A DNA stretch of 64,000 nt from positions 23,369 to 87,368 of the forward strand of contig JBIOXS010000108.1 in the NCBI GenBank assembly GCA_044869815.1. Reading direction: 5' to 3'. A program made the position numbers and the translations under genes. Within the stretch, counting starts at the first letter, position 1. Each line of letters opens with the position of its first letter. The stretch is from Candidatus Rokuibacteriota bacterium. GTDB lineage: Bacteria; Methylomirabilota; Methylomirabilia; Rokubacteriales; CSP1-6. The notes beneath the pieces were generated by a model, which was given only the letters and a program-made list of their open reading frames with translations, did no database searches and was not told the origin of the DNA. This document shows, piece by piece, positions 9,176 to 61,611 of the stretch.

Positions 9176-9185
9176 GAGTGGAGCG

Positions 9186-9821: not shown

Positions 9822-9822
9822 C

Positions 9823-13013: not shown

Positions 13014-13014
13014 G

Positions 13015-13314: not shown

Positions 13315-13317
13315 CAG

Positions 13318-15168: not shown

Positions 15169-15172
15169 CGCC

Positions 15173-34329: not shown

Positions 34330-36639
34330 GTGTTTAAGCAACGCCCGCTGAGGGATATCCGCTCGCATCTCGTCGTTCTGGTGCTCGCCGCCACGGTGCC
34401 GGTTATCGCCTTCGCGGGCGTACTCACCGCGGTCTTCTGGCATCAGCAACGGGCCGCCTTCGAGCAGCAATTCCTCGAGCGCGTGCGCGCCATGTCGATT
34501 GCGCTCGATCGCGAAGTGGATGGGCACATCCGCGCTCTCCAGACGCTCGCTCATTCCCAGCTTCTCGCTGCCGGGGACATGTCCGCCTTCTACGAGCAAG
34601 CGAAACGGGTGAAGAACGAGCAGCCCGGGTGGGCCACGGTGATCCTGGCGGATATCAGCGGGGCCCAGATCTTCAACCTCCGACGGCCGTTCGGCGCGCC
34701 GCTGCCGAGGACCGCCTTCGGCGATACGGCAATCGCGCGCATCGTGGCCACAGGGCGGCCGGTGGTGGCTCCGCTCATCAAGGGTGCGGTGCTCGCGGCG
34801 TACACGACAAACGTTGGCATCCCCGTGAAGCGGCAGGGTGTCGTCACGCACATCCTGATCGTCGCCGTCGACCCGCCCGCGTGGCTGGAGTTCCTGGGCA
34901 GGTATCCGATCACCCCCGACGCGACGATGACACTGCTGGACCAGAACGGCGTTGTCATCGCGCGCACCCTGAACAACGAGCGCTGGATCGGCCAGCGGCC
35001 TGCGCCGGCGCTGTATGAGAAATCCCGCGTGAGCGCTGAAGGGACGTACCGCAGCCTCGGCCTGGAGGGGCAGTGGTTCTACTCCGCCCACAGTCGCGCG
35101 CCGCTCTCGGGCTGGACGGTGGCGACCGGTGTTCCGGCGGCGGGCGTCGAGGCGGCCCTATGGCGGTCGACCGCCGCGATGGTTGGTGGCGGCGTATTGT
35201 CGGCCGTCCTTGCCGTCGGCCTCGCCTACCTCTTCGGCCGCAGAATCGCTCAGCCCATCTCCCTCTTGGCACGGTCCGCGGCGGCGCTCGCGAGCGGCGG
35301 CCGGGTACCCGAGCCGCCATCGACAACGATCGCCGAGGTCGCCGAGACGTCGCGAGCGTTTGCGGATGCGGCGGTTCGTCTCCAGCGGCGGGAAGCGGCA
35401 CTACGCGAGGCACATGCCGTGGCGGAAGACGCGAACCGAGCGAAGGACGAGTTCTTGGCCGTGCTATCGCACGAGCTTCGCACGCCGATCAATGCGGTGT
35501 ACGGGTGGACGCGAATGCTGCACGCCGGGCAGATCACCGAGGGTGGCAAGGAGCGCGCGCTCGACGCGATCATGCGAAACGCGCACGCGCAGGTGCAGCT
35601 GATCGACGACTTGCTGGACGTCTCGCGAATCGTCACCGGGAAATTACGGCTCGATGTCCGGTCGGTCGACCTCCCGACCGTTGTCGAAGCCGCCCTCGAT
35701 GCCGTGCGTCCCGCCGCCGAGGGCAAGGGCATCCGTCTCCAGCACGTCGTCGATCCCCGGGCGGGACGAATCCTGGGGGACCCCGACCGTCTTCAGCAGG
35801 TGGTGTGGAATCTCGTGATGAATGCGATCAAGTTCACGCCGAAGGGCGGTCGGGTTCAGGTCGGCCTGAGATGCGTCAACTCGCACGTCGAGATCGGCGT
35901 GAGTGACACGGGAGAGGGCATCTCCTCCGACATGTTGCCACTCGTATTCGACCGATTCCGCCAGGCGGACACCAGCAGCACGCGACTGCATGCGGGCCTG
36001 GGCCTCGGACTGGCGCTCGTCCGTCACCTCGTCGAGGCTCACGGCGGGACGGTGACGGCGCAGAGTCCCGGCAAGGGGAAAGGCGCGACCTTCGTGGTGA
36101 CGCTGCCGGTGGCGCTCGCGAAGATCGAAGACGGCACCGCCGAAAGAGTCCACCCGACGGCACGCGCGGTCATGCCTACTTATGTGGGACCCGCGCTCGA
36201 AGGGATCAAGGTCCTCGTCGTCGATGACGATCCTGATGCTCTTGATCTCGCGACGGCAATCCTCGTATCCGCACGCGCGGACGTGAGGACCAGCGGTTCA
36301 GCTGATGAGGCGGTCGGGGTATTCCAAGCGTGGCCTCCTGACGTGCTGATCGCGGACATCGAGATGCCCGGCGAGGACGGCCTATCGCTGATTCGCAAGA
36401 TCCGCGCGTTTGAGCCTGCCCGCGGCGGCAAGGTCCCGGCCATCGCGCTGACAGCCTATGGCCGCGTGGAGGATCGCATGCGGACGCTGTCCGCAGGCTT
36501 CAGCATGCACGTGCCAAAGCCTGTCGAGCCCGCGGAGCTGACGATGGTGGTCGCGAGTCTTGCGGGGCGCGAGGCGCCACGCCGGACCGACCGCACTCCC
36601 TCCGAGCCGCGTGGAGGCGCTGCTCCGATGAAGCCATGA
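34330..36639 (+). CDS. Hybrid sensor histidine kinase/response regulator (periplasmic sensor, HAMP, HisKA, HATPase, REC)
   Basis: GTG start. It has two TM helices flanking a sensor domain of about 250 aa. The H-box is FLAVLSHELRTPINAV. The G-boxes are DTGEGI and GLGLGL. The C-terminal REC domain reads KVLVVDDDPD...DIEMPGEDG. Confidence 0.85.
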   Translation: MFKQRPLRDIRSHLVVLVLAATVPVIAFAGVLTAVFWHQQRAAFEQQFLERVRAMSIALDREVDGHIRALQTLAHSQLLAAGDMSAFYEQAKRVKNEQPGWATVILADISGAQIFNLRRPFGAPLPRTAFGDTAIARIVATGRPVVAPLIKGAVLAAYTTNVGIPVKRQGVVTHILIVAVDPPAWLEFLGRYPITPDATMTLLDQNGVVIARTLNNERWIGQRPAPALYEKSRVSAEGTYRSLGLEGQWFYSAHSRAPLSGWTVATGVPAAGVEAALWRSTAAMVGGGVLSAVLAVGLAYLFGRRIAQPISLLARSAAALASGGRVPEPPSTTIAEVAETSRAFADAAVRLQRREAALREAHAVAEDANRAKDEFLAVLSHELRTPINAVYGWTRMLHAGQITEGGKERALDAIMRNAHAQVQLIDDLLDVSRIVTGKLRLDVRSVDLPTVVEAALDAVRPAAEGKGIRLQHVVDPRAGRILGDPDRLQQVVWNLVMNAIKFTPKGGRVQVGLRCVNSHVEIGVSDTGEGISSDMLPLVFDRFRQADTSSTRLHAGLGLGLALVRHLVEAHGGTVTAQSPGKGKGATFVVTLPVALAKIEDGTAERVHPTARAVMPTYVGPALEGIKVLVVDDDPDALDLATAILVSARADVRTSGSADEAVGVFQAWPPDVLIADIEMPGEDGLSLIRKIRAFEPARGGKVPAIALTAYGRVEDRMRTLSAGFSMHVPKPVEPAELTMVVASLAGREAPRRTDRTPSEPRGGAAPMKP

Positions 36640-37347: not shown

Positions 37348-38331
37348 GTGATGCGCGTCGATCGCGCGCCGGGCCGTCGTGCGGCTCGCGAGACGGCATG
37401 GCATAATGAGGAGGTTTTGAGAGCGAAAAACGCCCTTCCGCTGCTCGATCCGAACGCAGCCCTCCGCGTCCCCAAGCCGGCGTGGTTGAAGGTCCGCGCG
37501 CCCGGCGGTCCGAACTACATGCGGCTCAAGACGCTGATGCGCGCCGCCAACCTGCACTCGGTGTGCGAGGAGGCGCGCTGTCCCAACATCGGCGAGTGCT
37601 GGGAAGACGCCACGGCGACGTTCATGATCCTCGGCGACGTGTGCACGCGCAACTGCGGCTATTGCGCCATCGCCCACGGTCGACCGGTGTGGGAGGATCG
37701 CGAAGAGCCGGAGCGCATCGGGCGCGCGGTGGCCGACCTGGCGCTCGAGTACGTCGTCATCACGTCGGTGAACCGTGACGATCTCGCCGACGGCGGCGCC
37801 GCGCACTGGGCGGCCACCATCGGCGCCGTGCGGCGCCATGCGCCGGCCTGCCGGGTCGAGGTGCTCATCCCCGACTTCCAGGGTCTGCGCACGTCACTCG
37901 AGGCCGTGATCGCGGCGGGTCCCGACGTCCTCAACCACAACACGGAGACGGTGCCGCGACTCTACAAGCGTGCCCGCCACGGAGGACGCTACGAGCGCAC
38001 GCTGGAGCTGTTCCGGCGTGCGCGTGCCGTGGCGCCGGCGCTGCCGCGGAAGTCGGGGATCATCCTCGGCCTCGGCGAAGAGCGCGACGAGCTGCTGGCG
38101 ACGATGCGTGACCTCGTCGCCGTCGGCGTCTCGATCCTGACGCTCGGTCAGTACCTCCGCCCCTCGGCGGCCCACCTGCCGGTGGAGAAGTATTACCATC
38201 CCGACGAGTTCGCGACGCTGGCCGAGCACGGCCGCGCGCTCGGCTTCATGCACGTCGAGTCCGGCCCGCTCGTCCGCAGCTCGTATCACGCGAAGAAGCA
38301 GGCCGACAGCGCGAGCGAAATCGGCGCATGA
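37348..38331 (+). CDS. lipA: Lipoyl synthase
   Basis: It has [13 protein letters not shown] and the radical-SAM motif CTRNCGYCA. The start is uncertain because a TTG lies after GAGGAGG. Confidence 0.9.
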
Positions 38332-38681
38332 CCGAGTACGGGATCATCGTGCTGGTCTTCGCGTTCGCGGCCGCGGTGGCGGGAGCGTTGCTGTTCATCC
38401 CGACGCTCATCGCACCCAGACGGCTGACGCCGGTGAAGGCCGAGCCGTTCGAGTGCGGGAAGGATGCCCTCGGCGTGTCGGAAGGGCGGTTCGCCATCAA
38501 GTTCTCGACGATCGCCATCCTCTTCATCCTCATCGACATCGAGCTGCTGTTCGTGTGGCCGTGGGCGATGCTGTACCGGACGCTCGGCGTGTTCGGCTTC
38601 GTCGAGATGATGGTCTTCCTCGGCATCCTGATGCTCGGCTTCCTCTACATCTGGCGCAAGGGAGGGCTCGAGTGGGAGTAG
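38328..38681 (+). CDS. nuoA: NADH-quinone oxidoreductase subunit A (locus 2)
   Basis: The ATG overlaps the lipA stop (ATGA). It has the NuoA motif FECGKD. Confidence 0.85.
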
Positions 38682-39130
38682 GCAGCTTCTTCACGGCGAA
38701 GCTCGACGAGGCGATCGGCTGGGCGCGGAAGTACTCCATCTTCCAGTACCCGTTCGTGACGGCGTGCTGCGGCATGGAGTACATGGCCACCGCCTGCTCG
38801 CATTACGACGTCGACCGGTTCGGCGCCGGTCTGCCGCGCTTCTCGCCTCGGCAGGCGGACGTCCTCTTCGTCGTGGGAACCATCTCGCACAAGATGGCGC
38901 CGGTCCTGAAGCGCATCTACGACCAGATGACGGAGCCGAAGTGGGTCGTGGCCTTCGGTGTCTGCACCTGCACGGGCGGGTTCTACGACAACTACGCCAC
39001 CGTCCAGGGCATCGACACGATCATTCCCGTCGACGTCTACATCCCGGGCTGTCCGCCGCGCCCGGAGTCGGTGCTGGACGGGCTCATGAAACTTCAAGAT
39101 CTGATCGCGGCCGGGGCGCAGCGCTACTGA
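38672..39130 (+). CDS. nuoB: NADH-quinone oxidoreductase subunit B (locus 2)
   Basis: GTG after AAGGGAGGG. It has [16 protein letters not shown] and PGCPP. Confidence 0.85.
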
Positions 39131-39627
39131 TGGACGGCGCCGCCATCCTGGACCGGCTGCGGACGCGCTTCGGCGCGGCCGTGGTGCAGACGCACGCGCA
39201 TCGCGGTGATCACACCGCCGTGGTGGAGCGCTCGGCCATCGTCGACGTGCTCCGCCTGTGTCGCGACGATCCTGCGCTCGGCTTCGATATGCTGAGCGAC
39301 CTCACCGCCGTCGATTTCCTGAAGTTCCCCGGGCGCGAGGACGGCCCGCGATTCGAGGTCGTCTACCATCTCTATTCGCTGCCGCACAACCACCGCGTCC
39401 GATTGAAAGTCAACGTCGACGAGGACGACCCCGTCGTCCCGACCGCGGTGGGCCTCTGGCCGATCGCCAACTGGCTCGAGCGCGAGGTGTGGGACATGTT
39501 CGGGATCCGCTTCGACGGCCATCCCGATCCGCGCCGCCTGCTCATGTACGAGGAGTTCGTGGGCCACGCGCTGCGCAAGGACTACCCGATCAACCGACGG
39601 CAGCCGCTGATCGGTCCGAAGATCTGA
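39130..39627 (+). CDS. nuoC: NADH-quinone oxidoreductase subunit C (locus 2)
   Basis: TGATG overlap. It has EREVWDMFGIRFDGHPD. Confidence 0.8.
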   Translation: MDGAAILDRLRTRFGAAVVQTHAHRGDHTAVVERSAIVDVLRLCRDDPALGFDMLSDLTAVDFLKFPGREDGPRFEVVYHLYSLPHNHRVRLKVNVDEDDPVVPTAVGLWPIANWLEREVWDMFGIRFDGHPDPRRLLMYEEFVGHALRKDYPINRRQPLIGPKI

Positions 39628-39629
39628 CG

Positions 39630-41000
39630 ATGGCGGAGACCACGCGCCGCGAGATCATGCTCGGCGAGGGCGCCGGCACCGGGACCGGCCAGGATCTGAA
39701 GGTCGGCGTGGGTCCCGCGCATCCGGCGATGCACGGCATCATCCGCATCGTCGCGGATCTCGACGGCGAGATCATCCGCAAGGCCGACGTCGAGATCGGC
39801 TACCTGCACCGCGCCTTCGAGAAGGACTGCGAGGTCGGCGGCTGGAACAACGCCATTCCGTACACGGACCGGCTCAACTACGTCTCGCCGCTGATCAACA
39901 ACTTCGCCTACGCCTCGGCCGTCGAGAAGCTCCTCGGCATCGACGTCACCGAGCGCTGCAAGTACATCCGGACGATCATGTCCGAGATCTCGCGCGTCTG
40001 CGATCACCTCACGTGCGTGGGCGCCTCCTCGATGGAGCTCGGCGCCTTCACCGTCTTCCTGTACATGATCAAGGCCCGCGAGTTCCTGTGGGAGCTCGTG
40101 GAGGACGTGACCGGCGCGCGGCTGACCATCTCCTACGGCCGCGTCGGCGGTGTCAAGGCGGACCTGCCGGAGGGCTTCGACGCGAAGGTCCGCAGCGCGT
40201 TCAAGCAGACGCGCGAGGTGCTCGACGAGGTTCACCGGCTGCTGACCGGCAACCGGATCTTCATGGACCGCATGGTTGGCGTCGGCGCGCTGTCGCGTGA
40301 GGAGACGATCGCCTACGCGATCACGGGGCCGCTGCTGCGGGCGGCCGGCGTGCCCTACGATCTGCGGCGGGCGGCTCCGCACTGGGCGTACGACCGCGTG
40401 GACTTCGAGGTGGTGACCCAGCAGGGCGGCGACAACTACGCGCGCTATCTCGTGCGCATGGGCGAGATGGAGCAGTCGATGCGCATCGCCGAGCAGGCGC
40501 TCGCCACGATTCCGGGCGGGCCGATCAACGTCGACTTCGAGGGGCGCGCCATCGATCCCGCCGCCTACATCGACCAGGGCAAGCAGGGCAAGACGGAGGG
40601 GCTGCTGCTGATGCCGATCCGGCTCTCCCCGAACCTCGAGGGGCAGAACAAGCCGGCGTGGGATCGCGTGAACGCCGCCGACAAGAGCGTGGTGCTGCCC
40701 CCGAAGGAGAGCACGTACGGCTCGATCGAAGGGCTCATGAACCATTTCATGCTGATCATGGAGGGCTACGGGATCCGGCCGCCGGCCGGCGAGGCCTACT
40801 TCGCCTCGGAAGGCGCCAACGGCGAGCTTGGATTCTACGTGGTCTCCGACGGCGGCGACCGCCCTTATCGCGTGCGCTGCCGGCCGCCGTGCTTGCCGCC
40901 GATGGCCGCCTTGCATCGCATGATCGAGGGCGAGATGGTGGCCGATCTCATTCCCACCTTCGGCTCGGTGAACATGATCGGGGGCGAGCTTGACCGTTAG
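39630..41000 (+). CDS. nuoD: NADH-quinone oxidoreductase subunit D (locus 2)
   Basis: 456 aa with an insertion relative to the locus-1 NuoD. The C-terminus ends IGGELDR. Confidence 0.85.
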   Translation: MAETTRREIMLGEGAGTGTGQDLKVGVGPAHPAMHGIIRIVADLDGEIIRKADVEIGYLHRAFEKDCEVGGWNNAIPYTDRLNYVSPLINNFAYASAVEKLLGIDVTERCKYIRTIMSEISRVCDHLTCVGASSMELGAFTVFLYMIKAREFLWELVEDVTGARLTISYGRVGGVKADLPEGFDAKVRSAFKQTREVLDEVHRLLTGNRIFMDRMVGVGALSREETIAYAITGPLLRAAGVPYDLRRAAPHWAYDRVDFEVVTQQGGDNYARYLVRMGEMEQSMRIAEQALATIPGGPINVDFEGRAIDPAAYIDQGKQGKTEGLLLMPIRLSPNLEGQNKPAWDRVNAADKSVVLPPKESTYGSIEGLMNHFMLIMEGYGIRPPAGEAYFASEGANGELGFYVVSDGGDRPYRVRCRPPCLPPMAALHRMIEGEMVADLIPTFGSVNMIGGELDR

Positions 41001-41472
41001 CGCGCCCCGGTTCTCTCCCGAGCAGCTCGCCGAGGTGCGCCGCCTGCAGTCGCTCTATCCGGATCCTCGCGGCGCGCTGCTTCCCGTCCTGCACATGGCC
41101 CAGGACACGTTCGGCCACGTCTCGCTCGAGATGGAGGAGTACGTGGCCACGCTGTTCGGGCTGTCGCCGGCGCAGGTCCACGAGGTGGTGACGTTCTACA
41201 CGCTGTTCTTCCAGCAGCCGAAGGGCCGGCACGTCATCGCCGTCTGTCACAACCTCTCCTGTCATCTCGCCGGCGCCCCTGCCATCCTCGCTCACCTCAA
41301 GGTGCGGCTCGGCATCGAGCCCGGCGAGACCACCGAGGATGGCCGCATCACCTTCCAGGCCGTCGAGTGCCTGTGCGCGTGCGAAGCGGCGCCCATGGCC
41401 CAGGTCGACGACCGCTACGAGCTGAACCTGACCCGCGAGAAGGTCGACCGGATCCTCGAGGCGCTGCCCTGA
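40990..41472 (+). CDS. nuoE: NADH-quinone oxidoreductase subunit E (2Fe-2S)
   Basis: TTG start. It has the cysteines CHNLSC and CLCACE. Confidence 0.85.
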   Translation: MTVSAPRFSPEQLAEVRRLQSLYPDPRGALLPVLHMAQDTFGHVSLEMEEYVATLFGLSPAQVHEVVTFYTLFFQQPKGRHVIAVCHNLSCHLAGAPAILAHLKVRLGIEPGETTEDGRITFQAVECLCACEAAPMAQVDDRYELNLTREKVDRILEALP

Positions 41473-42692
41473 TGGCCGAGCTCGTCCTGATGCGGAACTT
41501 CGAGCACGCCAACTCGCATACGCTCGGCGTCTATCGCGAGCACGGCGGCTACGCCGCCTGGGACAAGGCCCGGCAGATGGAGCCGGCGGCGCTGGTGGAG
41601 GAGGTCAAGCAGTCGAACCTCCGCGGGCTCGGCGGCGCCGGCTTCCCGACGGGGGCCAAGTGGTCGTTCATTCCCAAGAACCACACGGGGCCCGTCTATC
41701 TCGTGGTCAACGCGGACGAGGGCGAGCCGGGCACCTTCAAGGACCGCTACCTGCTGGAGAAGGATCCGCATGCCCTGATCGAGGGCATGCTGATCTCCGC
41801 ACGCGCCATCCGCTCGGCGCTCGGCTTCGTCTACATCCGCGGCGAGTACGTCGAGCCGTGGCGGCGCTTCAGCGCGGCCGTCCGGGAAGCGTACGACGCG
41901 GGACTGCTCGGCCAGGGATTCGACATCGTCGTGCATCGGGGAGCCGGCGCGTACATCTGCGGAGAGGAAACCGGGTTGATCTCCTCCCTGGAGGGCAAGA
42001 AGGGGTGGCCCAAGGTCAAGCCGCCGTTCCCGGCGATCAAGGGCGCCTTCGCGCAGCCGACCATCGTGAACAACGTCGAGACGCTCGCGTGCGTGCCCCC
42101 GATCATCAGCCGCGGCGCCGCCTGGTTCGCCGGCCTCGGCACCAAGACCCAGGGTGGCACGCGGATGTACTCGGTCTCGGGCCGCGTGAAGAAGCCCGCC
42201 GTGTACGAGACGCCGGTGTCGATCACGCTGCGCCGGCTCATCGAGCTCGCGGGCGGCGTGAGCCACTCGGGACGGCTGAAGGCCGTCGTGCCGGGCGGCG
42301 GCTCGGCGCCCATCCTGACCGCCGACGAGATCGACGTCGTCATGGACGTCGACGGCCTCAAGACTGCCGGCTCGATGATCGGCTCCGCGGGCGTGATCGT
42401 GCTGGACGAGAGCGCGTCGGTGCCGGAAGCGCTCAGGGTCCTGGCGCGCTTCTACGCCCACGAATCGTGCGGGCAGTGCACCCCGTGCCGCGAGTCGACG
42501 GGGTGGATCTACAAGATGGTGCACCGCATCGTCGAGGGTCACGGCCGCAAGGACGACCTCGACACCATCATCGACGTCGCCAGGCGCGGCGCCGGCACGA
42601 CCATCTGCGCCTTCTACGACGGCGCCGTCGGCCCCTACATCTCCTACATCCAGAAGTTCCGCCACGAGTTCGAGGCGCTATGCCGCGGCTGA
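41472..42692 (+). CDS. nuoF: NADH-quinone oxidoreductase subunit F (FMN, NADH-binding, 4Fe-4S)
   Basis: TGATG overlap. It has GLGGAGFPTG and ESCGQCTPCRE. Confidence 0.9.
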   Translation: MAELVLMRNFEHANSHTLGVYREHGGYAAWDKARQMEPAALVEEVKQSNLRGLGGAGFPTGAKWSFIPKNHTGPVYLVVNADEGEPGTFKDRYLLEKDPHALIEGMLISARAIRSALGFVYIRGEYVEPWRRFSAAVREAYDAGLLGQGFDIVVHRGAGAYICGEETGLISSLEGKKGWPKVKPPFPAIKGAFAQPTIVNNVETLACVPPIISRGAAWFAGLGTKTQGGTRMYSVSGRVKKPAVYETPVSITLRRLIELAGGVSHSGRLKAVVPGGGSAPILTADEIDVVMDVDGLKTAGSMIGSAGVIVLDESASVPEALRVLARFYAHESCGQCTPCRESTGWIYKMVHRIVEGHGRKDDLDTIIDVARRGAGTTICAFYDGAVGPYISYIQKFRHEFEALCRG

Positions 42693-44326
42693 CGATCGAC
42701 GGGAAAGAGATCGAGGTGGAGGCGGGGACGAACCTCATCGAGGCGGCCCGGCGGCTCGGCATCGAGGTGCCCCACTACTGCTATCACCCGGGCCTGTCGA
42801 TCGCGGGTCAGTGTCGGCTCTGCATGGTCGACATCGAGAAGGCGCCGCGCCCGACCATCGCCTGCAACACGCCGGCGGCCGACGGCATGATCGTGCACAC
42901 GCAGACGGAGCGCGTGAAGGAGACGCGGCGGTCGATGATGGAGTTCCACCTGATCAATCATCCGCTCGACTGCCCGGTCTGCGACCAGGCGGGCGAGTGC
43001 TGGCTGCAGATCTACTACATGAAGCACGGGCTCTACGAGCCGCGGATGACGGATGAGAAGGTGCACAAGCCGAAGGCGGTGCCGCTCGGGCCGCACGTCA
43101 TGCTCGACGCCGAGCGCTGCATCCTGTGCTCCCGCTGCGTGCGGTTCTGCGACGAGATCACCGGCACCGCCGAGCTCGGCATCTTCAACCGCGGCGACGT
43201 CTCGGAGATCGGCCTCGTTCCGGGCCGGGATCTCGAGAACAATTACTCGGGCAACGTCGTGGACATCTGTCCCGTCGGCGCCCTCACCGATCGCGACTTC
43301 CGCTTCCAGGTCCGCGTGTGGTATCTCGACTCGACGAAGTCGATCTGCCCCGGCTGCGCGCGCGGTTGCAACGTCGACGTGCATGTGAACCGCAAGCGGC
43401 CGCATCACGCCGGCGGACGCCGGGTGGCCCGGCTGAAGCCGCGATTCAACCCCGCCGTCAACGCCTGGTGGATCTGCGACGTCGGCCGCTACGGCTTCGG
43501 CGCTGTCGACGACGCCACACGGCTGACCGTCCCGTACCGACGCGTCGGTGGCGAGATCGCCGACATGGACTGGGGCGACGCCGTGACGGCGATGGCCGAC
43601 GCCCTCCGGCGCTACACGGCCGACGAGATCGCCATCGTCGCGTCGCCCCATCAGTCGAACGAGGACCTGTTCGCCGTCAAGCGGCTGTGCGAGCAGCGCG
43701 GGATCCGCCAGGTCGCGTTCCGCGTTCCCGCGGCGTCGGCGGCGACCGACGACGACTTCCTGCTGCGCGCCGACCGGCACCCGAACACGCGCGGCGCGGA
43801 GCTGATCGGGCTCGACGGTGACGGCGCCGCCATCCTGGCCGCCGCGCGCGCCGGTCGGATCAAGCTCTTGTGGGTGTTCGAGCACGACCTGCTCGGCAGC
43901 GGCTGGCCGCCCGCCGACACCGCGCAGGCGCTGGAGCGCGTGGAGACGCTCGTCTGGAGCGGCGCCAACGCCAGCGCCACCAGCACACGCGCCCATCTGG
44001 TGCTGCCGCTCGCGGCATGGGTCGAGCGCGATGGCACCTTCACCAACTTCCTCGGCCGCGTCCAGCGGTTCCGCGCGGCCGTGGAGCCGCTCGGCCAGGC
44101 GCTGGCCGGCTGGGACGTCGTCGGCCGCGTGGTGGCTGCGCTGGACGCGCCGCCAGCGGGAACCCGGGCCGAGCACTGGTTCCGGGAGCTGGCGAAGAAC
44201 GTCGGCGCCTTCGCGGGACTGACCTATCAGGCGATCGGTGACGGCGGCGGCATGGTCGGGGGAGCGCAGCCCACGGCGGCGCCGCCGCCGCCCGGCCGCC
44301 GGGCCGGCGCCAAGGTCACGGCGTGA
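42680..44326 (+). CDS. nuoG: NADH-quinone oxidoreductase subunit G (short form, 548 aa)
   Basis: It has an N-terminal 2Fe-2S site and 4Fe-4S cysteines (CRLCMV, HPLDCPVCDQAGEC, CILCSRCVRFC). It lacks a long C-terminal extension. Confidence 0.85.
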   Translation: MPRLTIDGKEIEVEAGTNLIEAARRLGIEVPHYCYHPGLSIAGQCRLCMVDIEKAPRPTIACNTPAADGMIVHTQTERVKETRRSMMEFHLINHPLDCPVCDQAGECWLQIYYMKHGLYEPRMTDEKVHKPKAVPLGPHVMLDAERCILCSRCVRFCDEITGTAELGIFNRGDVSEIGLVPGRDLENNYSGNVVDICPVGALTDRDFRFQVRVWYLDSTKSICPGCARGCNVDVHVNRKRPHHAGGRRVARLKPRFNPAVNAWWICDVGRYGFGAVDDATRLTVPYRRVGGEIADMDWGDAVTAMADALRRYTADEIAIVASPHQSNEDLFAVKRLCEQRGIRQVAFRVPAASAATDDDFLLRADRHPNTRGAELIGLDGDGAAILAAARAGRIKLLWVFEHDLLGSGWPPADTAQALERVETLVWSGANASATSTRAHLVLPLAAWVERDGTFTNFLGRVQRFRAAVEPLGQALAGWDVVGRVVAALDAPPAGTRAEHWFRELAKNVGAFAGLTYQAIGDGGGMVGGAQPTAAPPPPGRRAGAKVTA

Positions 44327-45438
44327 CGGCGACGCTCGCGGACTTCGGCATCGCGTTCGCGCGGGTGGCGTTCGTGATGATGTTCGTCCTCAACCTGGGC
44401 GGTCTGCTGACCTGGGTCGAGCGCAAGCAGTCCGCCATCATGCAGGACCGGATCGGCGCCAATCGCGCCTCGATTCTCGGCTTCCGCGTCCTGGGCCTGT
44501 TCCATCCGCTCGCCGACGCCATCAAGATGCTGACAAAAGAAGATTTCTTGCCGGCGCGTGCCGATCGTTTTCTTTTCAAGCTTGCACCGTTCGTCTCCGT
44601 CTTCTTCGGCCTCGTCGCCTTCGCCTCCATTCCCTTCGGCGACACCGTCCGCATCGGCGACCGCGTCGTCCCCCTGCAGGCGGTCACCCTCAATGTGGGC
44701 GTGCTGTACGTCTTCGCCATGCTCTCGCTCGGGGTGTACGGCGTGATGATGGCCGGCTGGTCGTCGTCGAACAATTTCGCGCTGCTCGGCGGCCAGCGCG
44801 CGGCGGCGCTGATGATCTCGGCGGAGATCGCCATCGGCGCCTCGATCATGGGCGTGATCATGGTGTACGGCTCGCTCGACCTCATGGAGATCGTGCGCGC
44901 GCAGGGGGCGCCGCTGCTGCCGCGGCTGTTCGGGGACTGGATCCCGGCCTGGGGCGTGCTCACGCAGCCGCTCGCCTTCTTCCTGTTCCTCACGGCCGGC
45001 ATCGCCGCCACCAAGCGGATCCCCTTCGACATGCCCGAGGGCGAGTCGGAGATCATCGGCTACTTCGTCGAGTACAGCGGGATGAAGTTCGGGATGTTCG
45101 CCATGGCCGACTTCCTGGAGACGGTGGTCATCGCGGGGCTCACGACCTCGCTGTTCCTGGGCGGCTGGCAGGTGCCCTATCTGCAAGCGGCCGGGTTCGT
45201 CCTGCCATGGGGGGCCACGCTGTCGCTGCCGCACGCGCTGGTGACGCTGATGCAGGTGGGCGCCTTCTCGCTGAAGGTGGTGGCGATGATCTTCGTCATG
45301 ATGCTCGTGCGCTGGACGCTGCCGCGCTTCCGCTACGATCAGGCCATGCGGCTCGGCTGGCTCGGCCTCTTCCCGCTGTCGATCCTGAACATCGTGCTGA
45401 CGGGGCTGGTTCTGCTCATCATCGGCAATCACCCATGA
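44323..45438 (+). CDS. nuoH: NADH-quinone oxidoreductase subunit H (locus 2)
   Basis: GTGA overlap. It is NuoH-like and polytopic. Confidence 0.85.
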   Translation: MTATLADFGIAFARVAFVMMFVLNLGGLLTWVERKQSAIMQDRIGANRASILGFRVLGLFHPLADAIKMLTKEDFLPARADRFLFKLAPFVSVFFGLVAFASIPFGDTVRIGDRVVPLQAVTLNVGVLYVFAMLSLGVYGVMMAGWSSSNNFALLGGQRAAALMISAEIAIGASIMGVIMVYGSLDLMEIVRAQGAPLLPRLFGDWIPAWGVLTQPLAFFLFLTAGIAATKRIPFDMPEGESEIIGYFVEYSGMKFGMFAMADFLETVVIAGLTTSLFLGGWQVPYLQAAGFVLPWGATLSLPHALVTLMQVGAFSLKVVAMIFVMMLVRWTLPRFRYDQAMRLGWLGLFPLSILNIVLTGLVLLIIGNHP

Positions 45439-45983
45439 AGGCGCTCCAGAAGTTCTACCTTCGCGAAGTGCTGTCGGGCCTGGGCCTGACGGCGGCGCAC
45501 TTCTTCCGCAACATGCGGTTGCACACGGCCCGCGCGCTGGGCCGCAAGGACGCCCACGGAGCGGTGACGATCCAGTACCCGGAGGAGCGGCGCCCGTACT
45601 CGCCGCGGCTCCGCTCGCTGCATCGGCTGGTGCGGCGCGAGGACGGCTCGCCGCGCTGCGTGGCCTGCATGATGTGCGAGACGGTGTGCCCGGCGCGCTG
45701 CATCTACATCCTGGCCGACGAGCATCCGAACCCGGACATCGAGAAGATGCCGGCGCGCTTCGATATCGACCTCGGCAAGTGCGTCTTCTGCGGCTTCTGC
45801 GTGGAGGCGTGCCCCGAGGACGCGATCCGCATGGACACCGGGATCCTGGAGTTCTCGTCCTACAGCCGCGGCGGCATGATCTACACGAAGGAGATGCTGC
45901 TGAGCCTCGAGCCGGCCGGAGCGAACGGCGTGCCGACCTCACCGGTCCCGATCCCGGCGGACCGCACGGTGAGCGGCGCGTGA
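45435..45983 (+). CDS. nuoI: NADH-quinone oxidoreductase subunit I (locus 2)
   Basis: ATGA overlap. It has [12 protein letters not shown] and [12 protein letters not shown]. Confidence 0.9.
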
Positions 45984-46477
45984 ACGCCGTCGTCTTCGCG
46001 CTGCTGGCCCTGGTCGCCGTCGGCTCGGCGCTCGGCCTCATACTCAAGAAGAACGCGATCCACGGCGCCCTGTTTCTCGTCGTGAACCTCGGCACGGTGG
46101 CGGCGCTGTACCTCACGCTCCGCGCGGAGTTCCTCGCCGCCGCTCAGGTCATCGTGTACGCGGGTGCCATCATGGTCCTCTTCGTCTTCGCGATCATGGT
46201 GCTCATCCCGGGCAAGGAGGAAACCGGCCCGGACCTGCGCCGACCCTACCGGCTCCTCGCCATCCCCATCGGTGCGGGTCTGCTCGCCGAGCTGACCGTC
46301 ATCGTGGCCTCTCGGACCGGTCGCGCGGCCGCCCCGGCGGCGGCGACTCCCGGCGGCGTGGAGGCGATCGGCCGCTTGCTGTTCACGGACTACCTCTTTC
46401 CCTTCGAGCTGACGAGCGTCCTGCTCCTGGCGGCGATGGTGGGCGTGCTGGTGCTGGCGCGACGGGGGGCGACCTGA
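45980..46477 (+). CDS. nuoJ: NADH-quinone oxidoreductase subunit J (locus 2)
   Basis: GTGA overlap. It is hydrophobic and NuoJ-like. Confidence 0.8.
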
Positions 46478-46779
46478 TGGTCCCGGACATCTGGTACCTT
46501 GCCCTGGGCGCGGTACTCTTCTCGATCGGCGTGGTCGGCGTGATCGTGCGCCGAAACCCGCTGGTGATCTTCATGTCGATCGAGCTGATGCTGAATGCGG
46601 TGAACCTGTCCTTCGTGGCGTTCGGGCACCGGCTCGGCTCGCCTGACGGACAGGCGCTGGTGTTTTTCGTGATGGCCGTGGCGGCGGCCGAGGTGGCGGT
46701 GGGGCTGGCCATCATCGTGGCCATCTTCCGGCTGCGACAGCGGCTGTCGGTCGACGACCTATCCGTGATGCGGTGGTAG
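46477..46779 (+). CDS. nuoK: NADH-quinone oxidoreductase subunit K (locus 2)
   Basis: It has [16 protein letters not shown]. The next gene is pdhA, and no nuoLMN follows. Confidence 0.85.
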
Positions 46780-46790: not shown

Positions 46791-47804
46791 ATGCCCCAAA
46801 AGACTGCGACACAAACCGCCAGGGCGGGCCTCGGCATCGACGCCGACCTGGCGAAGCGGCTGTTCCGGGACATGGTGCTCATCCGGCGGTTCGAGGAGAA
46901 GGCCGCCGAGGCCTACGCGCTCGGGAAGATCGGCGGGTTCCTGCACCTGTCCATCGGCGAGGAGGCGGTGGCCGCCGGCGTGACGTCCGCGCTGCGTCCC
47001 GACGACTACGCGATCTCGACCTATCGCGAGCACGGGCATTGCCTGGTGAAGGGGTCGGACCCGCGGCGCGTGATGGCGGAGCTGTTCGGGCGCGTCGACG
47101 GGCTGTCGAAGGGCAAGGGCGGGTCGATGCACCTGTTCGACAAGTCCACGAACTTCCTCGGCGGCCACGCCATCGTCGGCTCGCACTTGCCGCTCGCGGC
47201 CGGCGTCGGCTTCAAGATCAAGTACGAGGGCGGCGACCAGGTCATCGTGTGCTACTTCGGCGATGGCGCCGTCCCCGAGGGCGAGTTCCACGAGGCGCTG
47301 AACCTCTCGGCGCTCTGGAAGCTGCCCGTGATCTGGGTGTGTGAGAACAACCGCTACGCCATGGGCACGTCGCTCGAGCGCGCACTGGCCCAGCCGGAGA
47401 TCTGGAAGTTCGGGCCGACGTACGGCATTCCGAGCGAGGCCGTCGACGGCATGGACGTGCTCGCCATGCGCGAGGCGACGGTGCGGGCGGTGGCGCGCGC
47501 CCGGACGGAGAAGACGCCGGCGATGCTGGAGGCGCGGACGTACCGCTTTCGCGGCCACTCCATGCGCGATCCGGCCGGCGCCGTCTATCGGACCAAGGAA
47601 GAGGTCGAGCGCGAGAAGCAGCGTGACCCGATCCTCCTCTTCCGGGACCGCGCGACCAAGGCGGGACTCCTCGGCGAGGAGGAGATCAAGCGCATCGAGA
47701 AGGATGTCAACGACCTCGTCGACGAGGCGGTCGCCTTCGCCGACGCCTCGCCCGAGCCGCCGCTGCCGGAGCTCTTCACCGACATCTTCAAGGAGGCGAC
47801 CTGA
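46791..47804 (+). CDS. pdhA: Pyruvate dehydrogenase E1 component, alpha subunit
   Basis: GGAGG RBS. It has the TPP motif GDGAVPEGEFHEALN. Confidence 0.9.
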   Translation: MPQKTATQTARAGLGIDADLAKRLFRDMVLIRRFEEKAAEAYALGKIGGFLHLSIGEEAVAAGVTSALRPDDYAISTYREHGHCLVKGSDPRRVMAELFGRVDGLSKGKGGSMHLFDKSTNFLGGHAIVGSHLPLAAGVGFKIKYEGGDQVIVCYFGDGAVPEGEFHEALNLSALWKLPVIWVCENNRYAMGTSLERALAQPEIWKFGPTYGIPSEAVDGMDVLAMREATVRAVARARTEKTPAMLEARTYRFRGHSMRDPAGAVYRTKEEVEREKQRDPILLFRDRATKAGLLGEEEIKRIEKDVNDLVDEAVAFADASPEPPLPELFTDIFKEAT

Positions 47805-47805: not shown

Positions 47806-48795
47806 ATGGCGGTGATGACCTACCGCGAGGCGCTCAACGTCGCCCTCCGCGAGGAGATGACGCGCGACCCCCGCGTGTTCGTGATGGGCGAGGAGGTGGG
47901 CCTCTACGAGGGGGCCTACAAGGTGACGCAAGGGCTCTTGAAGGACTTCGGTCCCAAGCGCGTGGTGGACACGCCGATCGCGGAATCCGGGTTCACCGGT
48001 GTCGGGATCGGCGCCGCCATGACCGGCCTCAGGCCGGTCGTCGAGATGATGACGTTCAACTTCGCGCTGCTGGCCCTCGACCAGATCGTGAACTCGGCGG
48101 CCAAGCTCTGTTACATGTCGGGCGGACAGTTCAACGTGCCGATCGTCATTCGCGGTCCCGGCGGCCCCGCGCATCAGCTGGCCGCGCAGCACTCGCAATC
48201 GATGGAGGTCTATTTCTACCACGTGCCCGGACTCAAGGTGGTGCGGCCGTCGACGCCGATGGATGCCAAGGGCCTGCTGAAGTCCGCCATCCGCGACGAC
48301 AACCCGGTGATCTTCATCGAGTCGGAGACGCTCTACAACGTCAAGGGCGAGGTCCCGGACGATCCGGACTTCGTCATCCCGCTGGGGCAGGCCGTCGTCC
48401 GCCGCGAGGGCACCGACGTCACGGTGGTCGCCTACATGGGGATGATGTACCGCGCCATGGAGGCCGCCGAGGAGCTGGCAAAAGACGGTATCTCGGTCGA
48501 AATCGTGGATCCTCGCACTCTTCGACCCATGGACACGGACACCATCATCGGCTCCGTCCGTAAAACCCATCGCGCAGTGGTGGTCGAGGCGGGCGCCGGT
48601 TTCGCCGGAATGGGCTCGGAGATCGCCGCGTTTATAACCGAGCAGGCCTTCGACGACCTCGACGCCCCCGTGGAGCGGGTGACGGGCGCCTCGGCGCCGA
48701 TGCCGTATGCGAAGAACCTCGAGAAGGCCAAGACGCCGACCAAGGACAAGATCATGGATGCCATCCGACGTGTCTGCTACGCCAACGGGGGCTGA
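47806..48795 (+). CDS. pdhB: Pyruvate dehydrogenase E1 component, beta subunit
   Basis: 329-aa transketolase-like C-terminal fold. Confidence 0.9.
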   Translation: MAVMTYREALNVALREEMTRDPRVFVMGEEVGLYEGAYKVTQGLLKDFGPKRVVDTPIAESGFTGVGIGAAMTGLRPVVEMMTFNFALLALDQIVNSAAKLCYMSGGQFNVPIVIRGPGGPAHQLAAQHSQSMEVYFYHVPGLKVVRPSTPMDAKGLLKSAIRDDNPVIFIESETLYNVKGEVPDDPDFVIPLGQAVVRREGTDVTVVAYMGMMYRAMEAAEELAKDGISVEIVDPRTLRPMDTDTIIGSVRKTHRAVVVEAGAGFAGMGSEIAAFITEQAFDDLDAPVERVTGASAPMPYAKNLEKAKTPTKDKIMDAIRRVCYANGG

Positions 48796-48797: not shown

Positions 48798-50150
48798 ATG
48801 GCCGTGACGAAGGTCCAGATGCCGAAGCTGTCGGAAGCCATGGAGAGCGGCAAGATCATCAAGTGGCTGAAGAAGGAAGGCGATCGCGTCCAGAGCGGGG
48901 ACATCCTCGCTGAGGTCGAGACCGACAAGGCCGACGTCGAGATGGAGGCCTTCGGCAACGGCATCCTCCGGAAGATCCTCGTCCCCGCCGGCGAGAAGGC
49001 GGACGTCGGCGCGCTGATCGGCGTGATCGCCGATCCCAATGACGACATCGGTGGCGTGGTGGCTCAGGCGGCCGCGCCCGCGGCGGCGCCTGCCGCCTCC
49101 TCGGAGGAATCGCGGCGACCGGTGACGGTGCCCCCGCAGCCGCGACGGGAGGATCACGCGGAGCGCTCGCCTTCGCCGTCCCGCGGACCGGAAGCGCCGG
49201 CGCGCCCCGCGGCCCCCGCGCAACCCGCCGGTCGACCGCAGCCGGCAGCTCCGGCGCACCCGGTCACCGTCGGCGGCGGCGAGGGTGGACGGCTGAAGGC
49301 GTCACCGCTGGCGCGGAAGATCGCCGCGCAGTCCGGTGTCGATCTCAAGCTGGTGCAGGGCAGCGGTCCGGGCGGACGCATCGTGCGTCGTGACGTGGAA
49401 GCAGCCGGGGCGGCGCCGGCGGTGGCGGCGAGCGGCGCGCCGCAGCGGGTAGCCGCGCAGCCCGGCGTCGAGTTCGAGGACCTCGCCCTCACGCCGATGC
49501 GGGCCGCCATCGCCAAGCGCATGCCGCTCAGCAAGGCGCCGGTGCCGCACTTCTACGTCACCTCGGAGATCGCGATGGACGCCGCGTGGGAGCTCCGCGA
49601 GCAGCTCAACGGCCTCGACGGCCAGCCGAAGATCTCCGTCAACGACTTCGTCGTGCGCGCCTGTGCGCTGGCCCTGCTGGAGCATCCGGGGATCAACGCC
49701 TCGTTCCAGGGCGACGCCATTCGCGTGTTCCATCACGTGCACATGGGCATCGCGGTGGCGCTCGAGGACGGGCTGATCACGCCGGTGTTGCGGGACGCCC
49801 ACGCCAAGTCGCTGGCGCAGCTGGCCGTCGAGAGCCGGGATCTCGCCGAGCGCGCGCGACAGCGGAAGCTGCGCACGCAGGAGCTGTCGGGCGCGACGTT
49901 CTCCATCTCGAACCTCGGCATGTTCGATGTCGCCGATTTCTCGGCCATCATCAATCCGCCCGAGGGCGCCATCCTGGCCGTCGGCTCGGTGCGCAAGGTG
50001 CCGGTGGTCACGGAGGGCGGGCTCGGCGTCGGACGGCGAATGGCGGTGACGCTCTCCTGCGATCACCGCGTGATGGACGGGGCCATGGGCGCCCGGTTCT
50101 TGCAAGACGTGAAGCGGCTGCTCGAAGAGCCGCTGCGGCTGCTGGTCTGA
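48798..50150 (+). CDS. pdhC: Dihydrolipoamide acetyltransferase (E2) with lipoyl domain
   Basis: It has the lipoyl-lysine motif ETDKADVEME, an Ala/Pro linker, and the catalytic motif DHRVMDGA. Confidence 0.9.
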   Translation: MAVTKVQMPKLSEAMESGKIIKWLKKEGDRVQSGDILAEVETDKADVEMEAFGNGILRKILVPAGEKADVGALIGVIADPNDDIGGVVAQAAAPAAAPAASSEESRRPVTVPPQPRREDHAERSPSPSRGPEAPARPAAPAQPAGRPQPAAPAHPVTVGGGEGGRLKASPLARKIAAQSGVDLKLVQGSGPGGRIVRRDVEAAGAAPAVAASGAPQRVAAQPGVEFEDLALTPMRAAIAKRMPLSKAPVPHFYVTSEIAMDAAWELREQLNGLDGQPKISVNDFVVRACALALLEHPGINASFQGDAIRVFHHVHMGIAVALEDGLITPVLRDAHAKSLAQLAVESRDLAERARQRKLRTQELSGATFSISNLGMFDVADFSAIINPPEGAILAVGSVRKVPVVTEGGLGVGRRMAVTLSCDHRVMDGAMGARFLQDVKRLLEEPLRLLV

Positions 50151-51535
50151 TGGCGACCCACGGGTTCGACGTCGTCGTCGTCGGCACCGGTCCCGGCGGC
50201 TACGTCTCCGCCATCCGCGCCGCGCAGCTCGGCCTTTCCGTCGGGGTCGTCGAGGACGACCGCCCGGGCGGCGTCTGCCTCAACTGGGGCTGCATCCCCA
50301 CCAAGGCGCTGCTGCGCAACGCCGAGGTCGTCCAGCTCTTCGAGCGAGCGGAGAGCTTCGGCGTCAGCGTGCAGGGTCTGCAGGTGGACTACGCGGCGGC
50401 CGTCAAGCGCAGCCGCGCCGTCGCCGATCGCATGGCCAAGGGCGTGGAGTTCCTGTTCAAGAAGAACAAGATCACGCTCTTCCCCGGAACGGGCGCGCTC
50501 AGGAGCCGCAACACCGTGGAGGTCAAGGGCCCGTCGGGCACGGAAACGCTGGAGGCGAAGCGCGCGGTGATCCTCGCGACGGGGTCAGAGCCGAAGTCCC
50601 TTCCTGGCGTCACCATCGACGAGAAGACCGTCATCTCGTCGAACGGTGCGGTACGAAACGAGGCGAAGCCGAAATCGATCGTCATCATCGGCGCGGGCGC
50701 CGTCGGCGTTGAGTTCGCCGACGTGTACCGCGCGTACGGCGTCGAGGTGACCCTGCTCGAGGCGCTCGATCGTGTCGTTCCCATCGAGGACCAGGAGGTC
50801 TCCGCCCAGCTCGCGCGCAACCTCTCGCGGCGCGGGATCCAGATCAAGACCGGGGTGAAGGTGAGCGCGGTCACGCCGGGTGGTGCCGGTGTGGTGGTCG
50901 AGACCGACGGCGCCAAGCTCGAGGCCGAGCAGGTCCTGATGGCCGTCGGCCGCGCGGCGCGGATCAAGGGCGTCGGGATCGAGGCGCTCGGCATCGCGAT
51001 GGACCGCGGCTTCGTCAAGGCGTCGCCCACGATGGAGACCTCGGTCAAGGGCGTCTACGCCATCGGCGACATGGCCGGTCCCCCGCTGCTCGCCCACAAG
51101 GCGATGGCCGAGGGGGTGGTGGCGGCCGAGGCGATCGCGGGCAAGAGTCCGCGTCCGGTCGACTACGGCAACGTTCCGTCGTGCACCTACTGCCGCCCGC
51201 AGATCGCCTCGATCGGCCTCACCGAGGCCAAGGCGCGCGAGGGCGGACGCGAGGTCAGCGTGGGCAAGTTTCCGTTCACCGCCAGCGGCAAGGCGGTGGC
51301 GCTGGCCGAGACCGACGGCTTCGTCAAGGTCATCGCCGACAAGAAGACGGGCGAGATCCTGGGCGCCCACATCATCGGCCCCGAGGCGACCGAGGTCATC
51401 CACGAGTTCGCGGTCGGCCGCACGCTGGAGGCGACGCTGGAGGAGCTGATCCACACGATCCATGCGCATCCGACGCTGTCAGAGGCGGCGCTCGAGGCCA
51501 CGCTGGCCGCGCTCGGCCACGCGATCCACATCTAG
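50150..51535 (+). CDS. lpdA: Dihydrolipoyl dehydrogenase (E3)
   Basis: It has the FAD motif GTGPGGY and the redox disulfide GGVCLNWGCIPTK. Confidence 0.95.
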   Translation: MATHGFDVVVVGTGPGGYVSAIRAAQLGLSVGVVEDDRPGGVCLNWGCIPTKALLRNAEVVQLFERAESFGVSVQGLQVDYAAAVKRSRAVADRMAKGVEFLFKKNKITLFPGTGALRSRNTVEVKGPSGTETLEAKRAVILATGSEPKSLPGVTIDEKTVISSNGAVRNEAKPKSIVIIGAGAVGVEFADVYRAYGVEVTLLEALDRVVPIEDQEVSAQLARNLSRRGIQIKTGVKVSAVTPGGAGVVVETDGAKLEAEQVLMAVGRAARIKGVGIEALGIAMDRGFVKASPTMETSVKGVYAIGDMAGPPLLAHKAMAEGVVAAEAIAGKSPRPVDYGNVPSCTYCRPQIASIGLTEAKAREGGREVSVGKFPFTASGKAVALAETDGFVKVIADKKTGEILGAHIIGPEATEVIHEFAVGRTLEATLEELIHTIHAHPTLSEAALEATLAALGHAIHI

Positions 51536-51543
51536 TGGCGCCC

Positions 51544-52701
51544 ATGGACTTCGAGCTGACCGCGGAGCAGCAGGCGCTGCGGCGCCGCGCGCGCGAGCTG
51601 GCCGACGGCGCGTTCGCCGAGCGGGCGGCGCGCTGGGACGCGAGCGAGGAGTACCCGTGGGAGAACGTCAAGGACCTGGCGGCCGCGGGCTTCATGGCCA
51701 TGACGGTGCCGACGACCTACGGCGGTGGCGGCCGGCCGCTCCTCGACGTCGTCCTCGTCATCGAGGAGATCGCGCGGGCGTGCGGCATCACCGGGCGCAT
51801 CGTGGTCGAGGGCAACCTCGGCACCGTCGGCGCGCTCAACGCCTACGGCACGGAGACGCAGAAGCGACGCTGGTTCCCGTGGGTCCTCGAGGGTGAGAAG
51901 CCGGCCATCGCCATCAGCGAGCCGGCCGCCGGCTCCGCGGCGACCGACATGGAGACGCGGATCGAGGAGACCGCCGGCGGCTACCGCATCACCGGCCACA
52001 AGTGCTGGATCACCGGCGCCGGGACGTCGCGGCTGTATCTCGTTTACGGGCGGTTCGGGGATCGTCCGGGCGCCGATGGGATCGGCGGCGTGTTCGTCGA
52101 GCGCGACACGCCCGGATTCAGGATCGGCCGGCGCGAGCTCATGATGGGTCTGCGCGGCATTCCCGAGGGCGAGCTCCACTTCGAAGGGTGCGTCGTGCCG
52201 CGCGAGCACCTGCTCGTCGGCCCGGGCGATGGCTTCAAGAAGCTCATGGCGGCCTACAACGGCCAGCGCCTCGGCGCCGCCACCGTGGCGCTCGGGCTCG
52301 CCCAGGGCGCCTTCGAGCGCGCGCTCGCCTACGCGGCGACCCGCAAGCAGTTCGGCAAGCCGATCGGCGACTTCCAGGGTATCCGCTGGAAGCTCGCGGA
52401 CATGGCGATCAAGATCGACGCCGCGCGCCTGCTGATCCACCGCTGCGCCGCTCGCGCCGGGTACGGGTTCCCGGACGCACTGGAGGCGGCCAAGGCCAAG
52501 ACGTTCGCGGCGGAGACGGCGCAGCAGGTCACGAGCGAAGCGCTCCAGATCCACGGCGCCGCCGGCTACGGGCGCTCGCTGCCGCTCGAGCGCATGATGC
52601 GCGACGCGCGGATGTTCGCCATCGGCGGCGGCACGCTCGAGATGATGCGCAACCTCATCGCCGACCGCCTGTTGCCGACGCGCGCGAACTGGCGGGCCTG
52701 A
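51544..52701 (+). CDS. Acyl-CoA dehydrogenase
   Basis: 385-aa ACAD fold (AAGFMAMTVPTTYGG...IYEGT-like C-terminus). Confidence 0.85.
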   Translation: MDFELTAEQQALRRRARELADGAFAERAARWDASEEYPWENVKDLAAAGFMAMTVPTTYGGGGRPLLDVVLVIEEIARACGITGRIVVEGNLGTVGALNAYGTETQKRRWFPWVLEGEKPAIAISEPAAGSAATDMETRIEETAGGYRITGHKCWITGAGTSRLYLVYGRFGDRPGADGIGGVFVERDTPGFRIGRRELMMGLRGIPEGELHFEGCVVPREHLLVGPGDGFKKLMAAYNGQRLGAATVALGLAQGAFERALAYAATRKQFGKPIGDFQGIRWKLADMAIKIDAARLLIHRCAARAGYGFPDALEAAKAKTFAAETAQQVTSEALQIHGAAGYGRSLPLERMMRDARMFAIGGGTLEMMRNLIADRLLPTRANWRA

Positions 52702-58404: not shown

Positions 58405-58486
58405 GGGGGTTGGATTATCACGGCAAATCGACATGAAAGTCAATAAATCCGTTGACTTTCGTCACGACGCCGTCCACGATTACGCC

Positions 58487-61610
<3,124 letters not shown>

Positions 61611-61611
<1 letters not shown>

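Follow-up and report, generated by a model that had tools for sequence, protein, structure and literature searches.

The DNA analyzed here is a 64,000-nucleotide stretch of contig JBIOXS010000108.1 (assembly GCA_044869815.1, positions 23,369 to 87,368 of the forward strand) from Candidatus Rokuibacteriota bacterium, a member of the Rokubacteriales, which are abundant, uncultured soil bacteria. This window, which has a G+C content of about 69%, contains two loci of nuo genes that encode subunits of complex I. The loci share a strand and are separated by approximately 20 kb; subunits encoded by locus 1 (7765–18114) are designated with the suffix 1 and those encoded by locus 2 (38328–46779) with the suffix 2, as in NuoD2. 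Genes were called from the periodicity of G+C at third codon positions (GC3) together with matches to Pfam and NCBIfam. E-values for the Pfam matches of the nuo genes all fall between 1e-11 and 1e-99, which excludes chance as an explanation for their identities. When every subunit was used in a tblastn search, the window was found to contain two copies each of nuoA, B, C, D, H, I, J, and K, but only one set of nuoE, F, and G and one set of nuoL, M, and N. The antiporter-like genes sit solely in locus 1, the locus that lacks nuoEFG. Both results agree with a first-pass annotation of the window.

Locus 2 consists of nuoA-B-C-D-E-F-G-H-I-J-K, and no nuoL, nuoM, or nuoN is encoded with it. This arrangement, which had been proposed from inspection of the sequence, was reproduced at the same coordinates by GC3 analysis and Pfam. 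All of the open reading frames (ORFs) are intact and carry a strong coding signal. The genes are as tightly packed as previously described, but the 1–4-nucleotide range given for their overlaps is too narrow. Neighboring genes overlap by 1–13 nucleotides (10 for nuoA/nuoB and 13 for nuoF/nuoG) or are separated by gaps of a few nucleotides, as in the 2-nucleotide gap between nuoC and nuoD. The initial description of locus 2 as ending at nuoK holds for the nuo genes, but understates the transcriptional context in which they are found. The unit is an operon with the order lipA-nuoA..K-pdhA-pdhB-E2-lpd. The lipoyl synthase gene lipA, which the first-pass annotation did not mention, overlaps nuoA2 by 4 nucleotides. 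At the other end, pdhA directly follows nuoK, as claimed, with its ATG positioned 11 nucleotides past the nuoK2 stop codon. This short gap contains the sequence GGAGG, and a terminator scan found no terminator-like site within it. A scan for sigma-70 promoters gave no match, a negative that is uninformative for this phylum. The genes downstream of nuoK2 encode all components of a pyruvate dehydrogenase complex of the heterotetrameric E1 type: E1 alpha, E1 beta, a lipoyl-bearing E2 with lipoyl, E3-binding, and catalytic domains, and E3.

The N module of locus 2 is complete; NuoE, NuoF, and NuoG contain the site for flavin mononucleotide (FMN) and NADH as well as iron-sulfur motifs, including the cysteine motifs of NuoE and NuoG. 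Similarly, the Q module (NuoB, C, D, and I) contains the motifs for cluster N2 and for two [4Fe-4S] clusters, and NuoD2 carries the sequence GPxHPxxHG. The proximal membrane subunits NuoA2, H2, J2, and K2 are all present. NuoK2 retains both conserved membrane glutamates when aligned with NuoK of E. coli. Comparison of locus 2 subunits with solved structures gave E-values between 1e-55 and 1e-94. Judged by these sequence features, the genes of locus 2 look functional.

Two subunits of locus 2 have unusual lengths, both of which were recognized in the first-pass annotation. NuoD2 is 70 amino acids longer than NuoD1 (456 versus 386 amino acids), and most of the difference is accounted for by a single insertion of ~50–66 amino acids after residue ~301; its alignment to structures in the PDB breaks at 301/351. 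The same insertion is found in the NuoCD and NuoD proteins of sister lineages described below. The gene call confirmed that NuoG2 is a short, 548-amino acid form. Its similarity to 75-kDa subunits is limited to the ~400 residues at their N-terminal end, and NuoG is also short in relatives (545–550 amino acids).

To place locus 2 in a broader context, we collected related loci. Homologues of NuoD2 that share 84–96% identity carry the names Candidatus Rokubacteria or Methylomirabilota. The order lipA-nuoA..K-pdh recurs on a 5.6 Mb contig (L001; ENA ERZ28493149, ctg4075652_27x_c, in which the ending "_c" may mark a circular assembly) and on contig L002, which is 52 kb in length. When NuoH2 was used to scan the species genomes of GTDB, a further 80 loci with NuoH identities of 77–94% were recovered, which brings the total to 82. 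Nearly all of the 80 GTDB loci are titled Rokubacteria or Methylomirabilota; the bins of the few others are labeled Binatia, Verrucomicrobiia, Limnocylindria, Acidoferrum, or Deferrimicrobiaceae. Mapping of the window's proteins onto these loci revealed an identical gene order in all 82, and the 10 kb to either side of nuoH hold no homologue of NuoL, NuoM, or NuoN at any of these loci. The gene for E1 alpha follows nuoK in each of the 69 loci that extend far enough (median gap, 19 nucleotides), and lipA lies ahead of nuoA in 54 of 54. A single locus, from a metagenome-assembled genome (MAG) of Methylomirabilia (L080), has a large gap of 3.2 kb between nuoK and pdhA. That gap contains no nuoLMN; it is occupied by two genes for 2-oxoacid:ferredoxin oxidoreductase (12607–15343; POR/POR_N and TPP_enzyme_C/PFO_beta_C domains), an insertion that places a second pyruvate-oxidizing enzyme in the same operon. 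The recurrence of this arrangement across related loci indicates that absence of LMN near locus 2 is a fixed trait of the order rather than an assembly artefact.

The nearest representatives of NuoD2 outside Rokubacteria are fused NuoCD proteins with the same insertion. Loci retrieved with one of these fused proteins have a lower G+C content, and their NuoM has homologues named Candidatus Omnitrophica. These Omnitrophica-like sister lineages encode the same type of complex I as locus 2, with the NuoD insertion and a NuoG of ~550 amino acids in common. In these lineages the cluster nuoA-B-C(D)-E-F-G-H-I ends with nuoI, and the genes that come next vary. A convergent N-M-L array follows nuoI in L093, L140, and L143. 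Locus L172 contains one unit with C, D (463 amino acids), a fused EF, G (550 amino acids), H, and I together with a convergent J-K-L-M-N unit; identities to locus 2 are 62% for D, 60% for F, 63% for H, 55% for I, 48% for K, and 38% for J. The NuoE-NuoF fusion of L172 (17749–19545) is 598 amino acids in length, and NuoC-NuoD fusions occur in several other relatives (P0121 and P0123). The layouts of these four loci indicate that this type of complex I is normally equipped with L, M, and N of its own and tolerates division into two transcription units. In Rokubacteria, however, J and K stay with A–I, and the break falls after K, where it is filled by the pyruvate dehydrogenase genes. Genes for pyruvate dehydrogenase E1 are located upstream of nuoA in L086, L087, and L114, and lipA is upstream in L095, L096, and L139, none of which belong to Rokubacteria. 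The link to pyruvate dehydrogenase is therefore older than the order. In several sister lineages, nuoI is directly followed by an orphan Q-module cassette with the order nuoB'-C'-(NuoI-like 4Fe-4S protein)-D'. Its B' is 64–66% identical to NuoB1 and 47–49% identical to NuoB2. In L087, no gene for a membrane subunit follows D'; if membrane-bound, the product of such a cassette would have to borrow a membrane arm.

Locus 1 has the order nuoA-B-C-NIPSNAP-D-H-I-J-K-L-M-N and is devoid of nuoE, F, and G as determined by Pfam. The NIPSNAP-domain gene that interrupts the locus, a second feature absent from the initial description, begins 10 nucleotides past nuoC1 and ends 1 nucleotide ahead of nuoD1; its product might serve the EFG-less complex as an accessory subunit. 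The alignment of NuoL1 with NuoL/Nqo12 structures of 606–629 amino acids runs from one end to the other (residues 11–608 against 6–606 of E. coli NuoL), and the best match for NuoL1 among solved structures is cyanobacterial NdhF. Among the NuoM sequences gathered, those closest to NuoM1 (50–53% identity) are proteins from Moorella, Peptococcaceae, and Chloroflexota, and the gene for one of them belongs to the 11-gene nuoABCDHIJKLMN cluster L171, from a spore-forming Firmicute. This grouping with 11-gene clusters of Firmicutes and Chloroflexota indicates that the LMN genes of locus 1 are native to it. Thus, locus 1 is a typical representative of the 11-gene type without EFG. It would encode an independent complex of 11 subunits, with native L, M, and N and without an NADH module, and the electron donor of this complex is probably not NADH. 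A gene pair 1.8 kb upstream of locus 1 (2277–5926) encodes, besides a thiamine pyrophosphate-dependent (TPP) enzyme, a protein that contains POR and DUF6537 domains. The pair resembles indolepyruvate/2-oxoacid:ferredoxin oxidoreductase, which hints that a ferredoxin might serve as the donor for locus 1.

Pairwise alignment of the paralogues yielded identities of 35.5% for A, 52.8% for B, 44.3% for C, 39.9% for D, 39.4% for H, 35.9% for I, 37.1% for J, and 47.3% for K. Identities of 35–53% rule out a recent duplication, as the first-pass annotation had maintained. The two loci hold ancient paralogues of different complex I types, with locus 2 representing the NADH type common to Omnitrophica-like lineages and locus 1 the 11-gene type. 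Comparisons of the H, L, and M subunits with solved structures gave no clear type assignment for either locus.

Locus 2 alone cannot make a complete pump. It would supply the N module (E, F, and G), the Q module (B, C, D, and I), and a proximal membrane module (A, H, J, and K), and the enzyme would need antiporter-like subunits in trans. The first-pass annotation had named two possible sources, one LMN set used by both complexes or further LMN genes at another site, and did not choose between them. We favor, with a probability of roughly 0.55, a split operon in which the L, M, and N subunits for locus 2 would be encoded elsewhere in the 5–6 Mb genome, by analogy with the sister lineages and with Nitrospira. 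In Nitrospira genomes, the copy number of nuo genes ranges from one to three, the copies are spread over several loci, and nuoL/M-like genes occur apart from the rest (bioRxiv 10.1101/2020.03.05.977850). These genomes provide a precedent for LMN located elsewhere, although no fixed lipA-nuo-pdh operon is described there. An unlinked nuoLMN unit would be the most economical source of pump subunits for locus 2, and the glutamates kept by NuoK2 are as expected if the protein is coupled to a NuoN. Our searches for such a unit weigh against this reading. A profile built from three sister-lineage NuoM proteins was searched against 5.8 billion proteins; the best 120 matches listed include no protein with a Rokubacteria or Methylomirabilota name and none from the 5.6 Mb contig. 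This negative is weak, since the lowest of the listed matches scores 503 bits and NuoM1 scores 452, such that a Rokubacteria orthologue could fall just below them, and since orthologous small membrane subunits are only 38–48% identical between the lineages. The best match with high GC content, P0278, lies on a 5 kb contig (L163; GC 0.68) in which L-M-N is followed by an unrelated gene. It was rejected as a Rokubacteria orphan NuoM; its homologues are all named Omnitrophica, and a search with P0278 itself returned no Rokubacteria-named NuoM and none from the 5.6 Mb contig. Other candidates for an orphan NuoM were discarded on the basis of their surroundings: P0321, P0344, P0343, and P0376 are in contiguous operons that reach nuoN, P0331 is in a J-K-L-M-N unit, and P0354 is in an L-M-N fragment on a contig with GC of 0.61. 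The high-GC NuoM candidates checked were all on contigs that could not be attributed to Rokubacteria, and no orphan nuoLMN was seen in any Rokubacteria sequence.

As the leading alternative, it is possible, but on balance unlikely, that both cores share NuoL-M-N of locus 1, which would generate two isoforms with different electron inputs, each with its own Q and proximal membrane modules. The division between duplicated subunits (A, B, C, D, H, I, J, and K) and single ones (E, F, G, L, M, and N) matches the assembly modules of complex I and supports sharing, as does the failure, in the weak test described above, to find another Rokubacteria NuoM among the matches listed. Sharing is also consistent with the proximity and common orientation of the loci, with the module swapping established for the superfamily, as in cyanobacterial NDH-1, and with identities of L1, M1, and N1 to sister-lineage L, M, and N (41–43%) that are no less than those of J2 and K2 to sister-lineage J and K (38–48%). 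The orphan Q cassette, with its locus-1-type B' and, in L087, the lack of membrane genes after D', points in the same direction. We regard as doubtful a specific form of this proposal in which two distinct cores, one fed by NADH and co-transcribed with pyruvate dehydrogenase and the other EFG-less, operate on one NuoL-M-N and are descended from a sister-like orphan B'-C'-I'-D' cassette beside a single membrane-arm set. The grouping of NuoM1 with 11-gene Firmicutes/Chloroflexota clusters, which implies that NuoM1 co-evolved with a different core, argues against sharing. Moreover, NuoN would have to fit two sets of NuoK, J, and A that are only 35–47% identical, the negative result of the orphan search is weak, and we are aware of no earlier example in which L, M, and N are shared by two divergent cores. 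We consider it highly improbable that locus 2 encodes a complete, smaller enzyme with a membrane foot of only A, H, J, and K and little or no proton pumping. In favor of such an enzyme, all 82 loci lack L, M, and N within 10 kb, and the gene arrangement is strictly maintained; however, NuoK2 keeps both of the glutamates that relay to NuoN, and a sister lineage of the same type has J-K-L-M-N. To our knowledge, no characterized enzyme of the complex I superfamily is without an antiporter-like subunit. Finally, an assembly or binning artefact, or decay in one genome, is excluded as the cause of the missing LMN, and nothing was found in its favor. Many studies contributed to the 69 independent loci that show the same junction, among them long-read MAGs and the 5.6 Mb contig, and the intact ORFs have strong coding signals.

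Compared with known systems, locus 2 represents a variant form of the familiar nuo operon. Like the canonical 14-gene nuoA-N/nqo clusters of E. coli, Thermus thermophilus, and Mycobacterium smegmatis, it has A–K in the usual order with FMN and iron-sulfur motifs intact. It departs from them in ending at nuoK, in the lipA and pyruvate dehydrogenase genes that flank nuo in the same tight array, and in the NuoD2 insertion and shortened NuoG2. Locus 1 has the same gene set and order as 11-gene clusters without nuoEFG from Firmicutes (e.g., Moorella) and Chloroflexota, which are related to cyanobacterial NDH-1, but adds the NIPSNAP-domain gene between nuoC and nuoD. Chadwick et al. are said to have described, in ISME J in 2018, a "2M" complex I with a second NuoM in related phyla. 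That type is recognized by an additional nuoM and by a NuoL whose lateral helix is extended. Both loci fall outside it: in locus 1, nuoM is single and NuoL is of ordinary length, and locus 2 lacks antiporter-like genes altogether. The literature that we searched contains no description of lipA, nuoA-K, and pdh as one conserved operon. The Rokubacteria literature searched does not mention nuo copy number, and a comparative paper on Methylomirabilis does not mention NADH.

Table 1 Features of the two nuo loci, the flanking operon genes, and the orphan Q cassettes of sister lineages.
Feature	Position	Strand	Details
nuoA1	7765-8118	+	Pfam
nuoB1	8109-8723	+	Pfam
nuoC1	8720-9175	+	Pfam
NIPSNAP-domain gene	9186-9821	+	PF07978, E 6e-52
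nuoD1	9823-10983	+	386 aa; Pfam
nuoH1	10980-11972	+	Pfam
nuoI1	11962-12519	+	Pfam
nuoJ1	12516-13013	+	Pfam
nuoK1	13015-13314	+	Pfam
nuoL1	13318-15168	+	616 aa; PF00361/PF00662; NF005141 NuoL 581 bits
nuoM1	15173-16714	+	513 aa; PF00361/PF00662
nuoN1	16711-18114	+	467 aa; PF00361/PF00662
lipA, lipoyl synthase	37417-38331	+	first gene of operon; start codon uncertain, ORF opens at 37348; NCBIfam lipoyl synthase NF004019 1.6e-121; TIGR00510 above cutoff; Pfam Radical_SAM and LIAS_N
nuoA2	38328-38681	+	117 aa; PF00507 5e-31
nuoB2	38672-39130	+	152 aa; PF01058 1.7e-27; N2-cluster motifs CCxxE, GCPP
nuoC2	39130-39627	+	165 aa; PF00329 5.7e-48
nuoD2	39630-41000	+	456 aa; PF00346 3.4e-97 in two stretches; clade-specific insertion
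nuoE	40990-41472	+	160 aa from TTG 40990 (alternative start GTG 41035); PF01257 6.9e-49; N1a cysteine motifs
nuoF	41472-42692	+	406 aa; PF01512, PF10589; FMN motif GLGGAGFPTGAK, GEETGL, N3 motif CGQCTPC
nuoG	42680-44326	+	548 aa; PF22117, PF13510, PF10588, PF00384
nuoH2	44323-45438	+	371 aa; PF00146 1.9e-99
nuoI2	45435-45983	+	182 aa; Fer4 families; two CxxCxxCxxxCP motifs
nuoJ2	45980-46477	+	165 aa; PF00499 6e-42
nuoK2	46477-46779	+	100 aa; PF00420 1e-30; last nuo gene of locus 2
pdhA, pyruvate dehydrogenase E1 alpha	46791-47804	+	TIGR03182 445 bits, cutoff 394
pdhB, E1 beta	47806-48795	+	NF006667 501 bits, above cutoff
E2 dihydrolipoamide acetyltransferase	48798-50150	+	PF00198, PF00364, PF02817; TIGR01349 438 bits, just below cutoff 445
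lpd, E3 dihydrolipoyl dehydrogenase	50150-51535	+	TIGR01350 558 bits, above cutoff
Orphan Q cassettes	L087 17270-20311; L160 17709-21276; also L090, L106, L114, L128		sister lineages

The genes that surround the operon were also inspected. A hybrid sensor kinase (34330–36639; dCache, HisKA, HATPase_c, and receiver domains) is encoded between a peptide ATP-binding cassette transporter and lipA. No gene occupies this position in L001 and two unrelated minus-strand genes occupy it in L002, which indicates that the stretch upstream of lipA is variable. On the other side, an acyl-CoA dehydrogenase gene (51535–52701) overlaps lpd by 1 nucleotide, and a carboxyltransferase and a methylmalonyl-CoA mutase-like gene are found at 58433–61611; the region downstream of lpd looks like a neighborhood for acyl-CoA catabolism. 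It also includes an ORF of 450 amino acids (54007–55359) that has a strong GC3 coding signal and no match in Pfam.

The lipA-nuo-pdh operon would co-express a major producer of NADH, pyruvate dehydrogenase, with the synthase for its lipoyl cofactor and with the enzyme that re-oxidizes NADH. It represents an unusually direct genetic link between a source of NADH and its sink. If the pump subunits have their genes at another place in the genome, locus 2 would be an ordinary split operon with an interesting neighborhood. If the only L, M, and N available are those of locus 1, the Rokubacteriales would provide the first case known to us of two divergent complex I cores that share one pump module, and such sharing would be relevant to the assembly and exchange of complex I modules.

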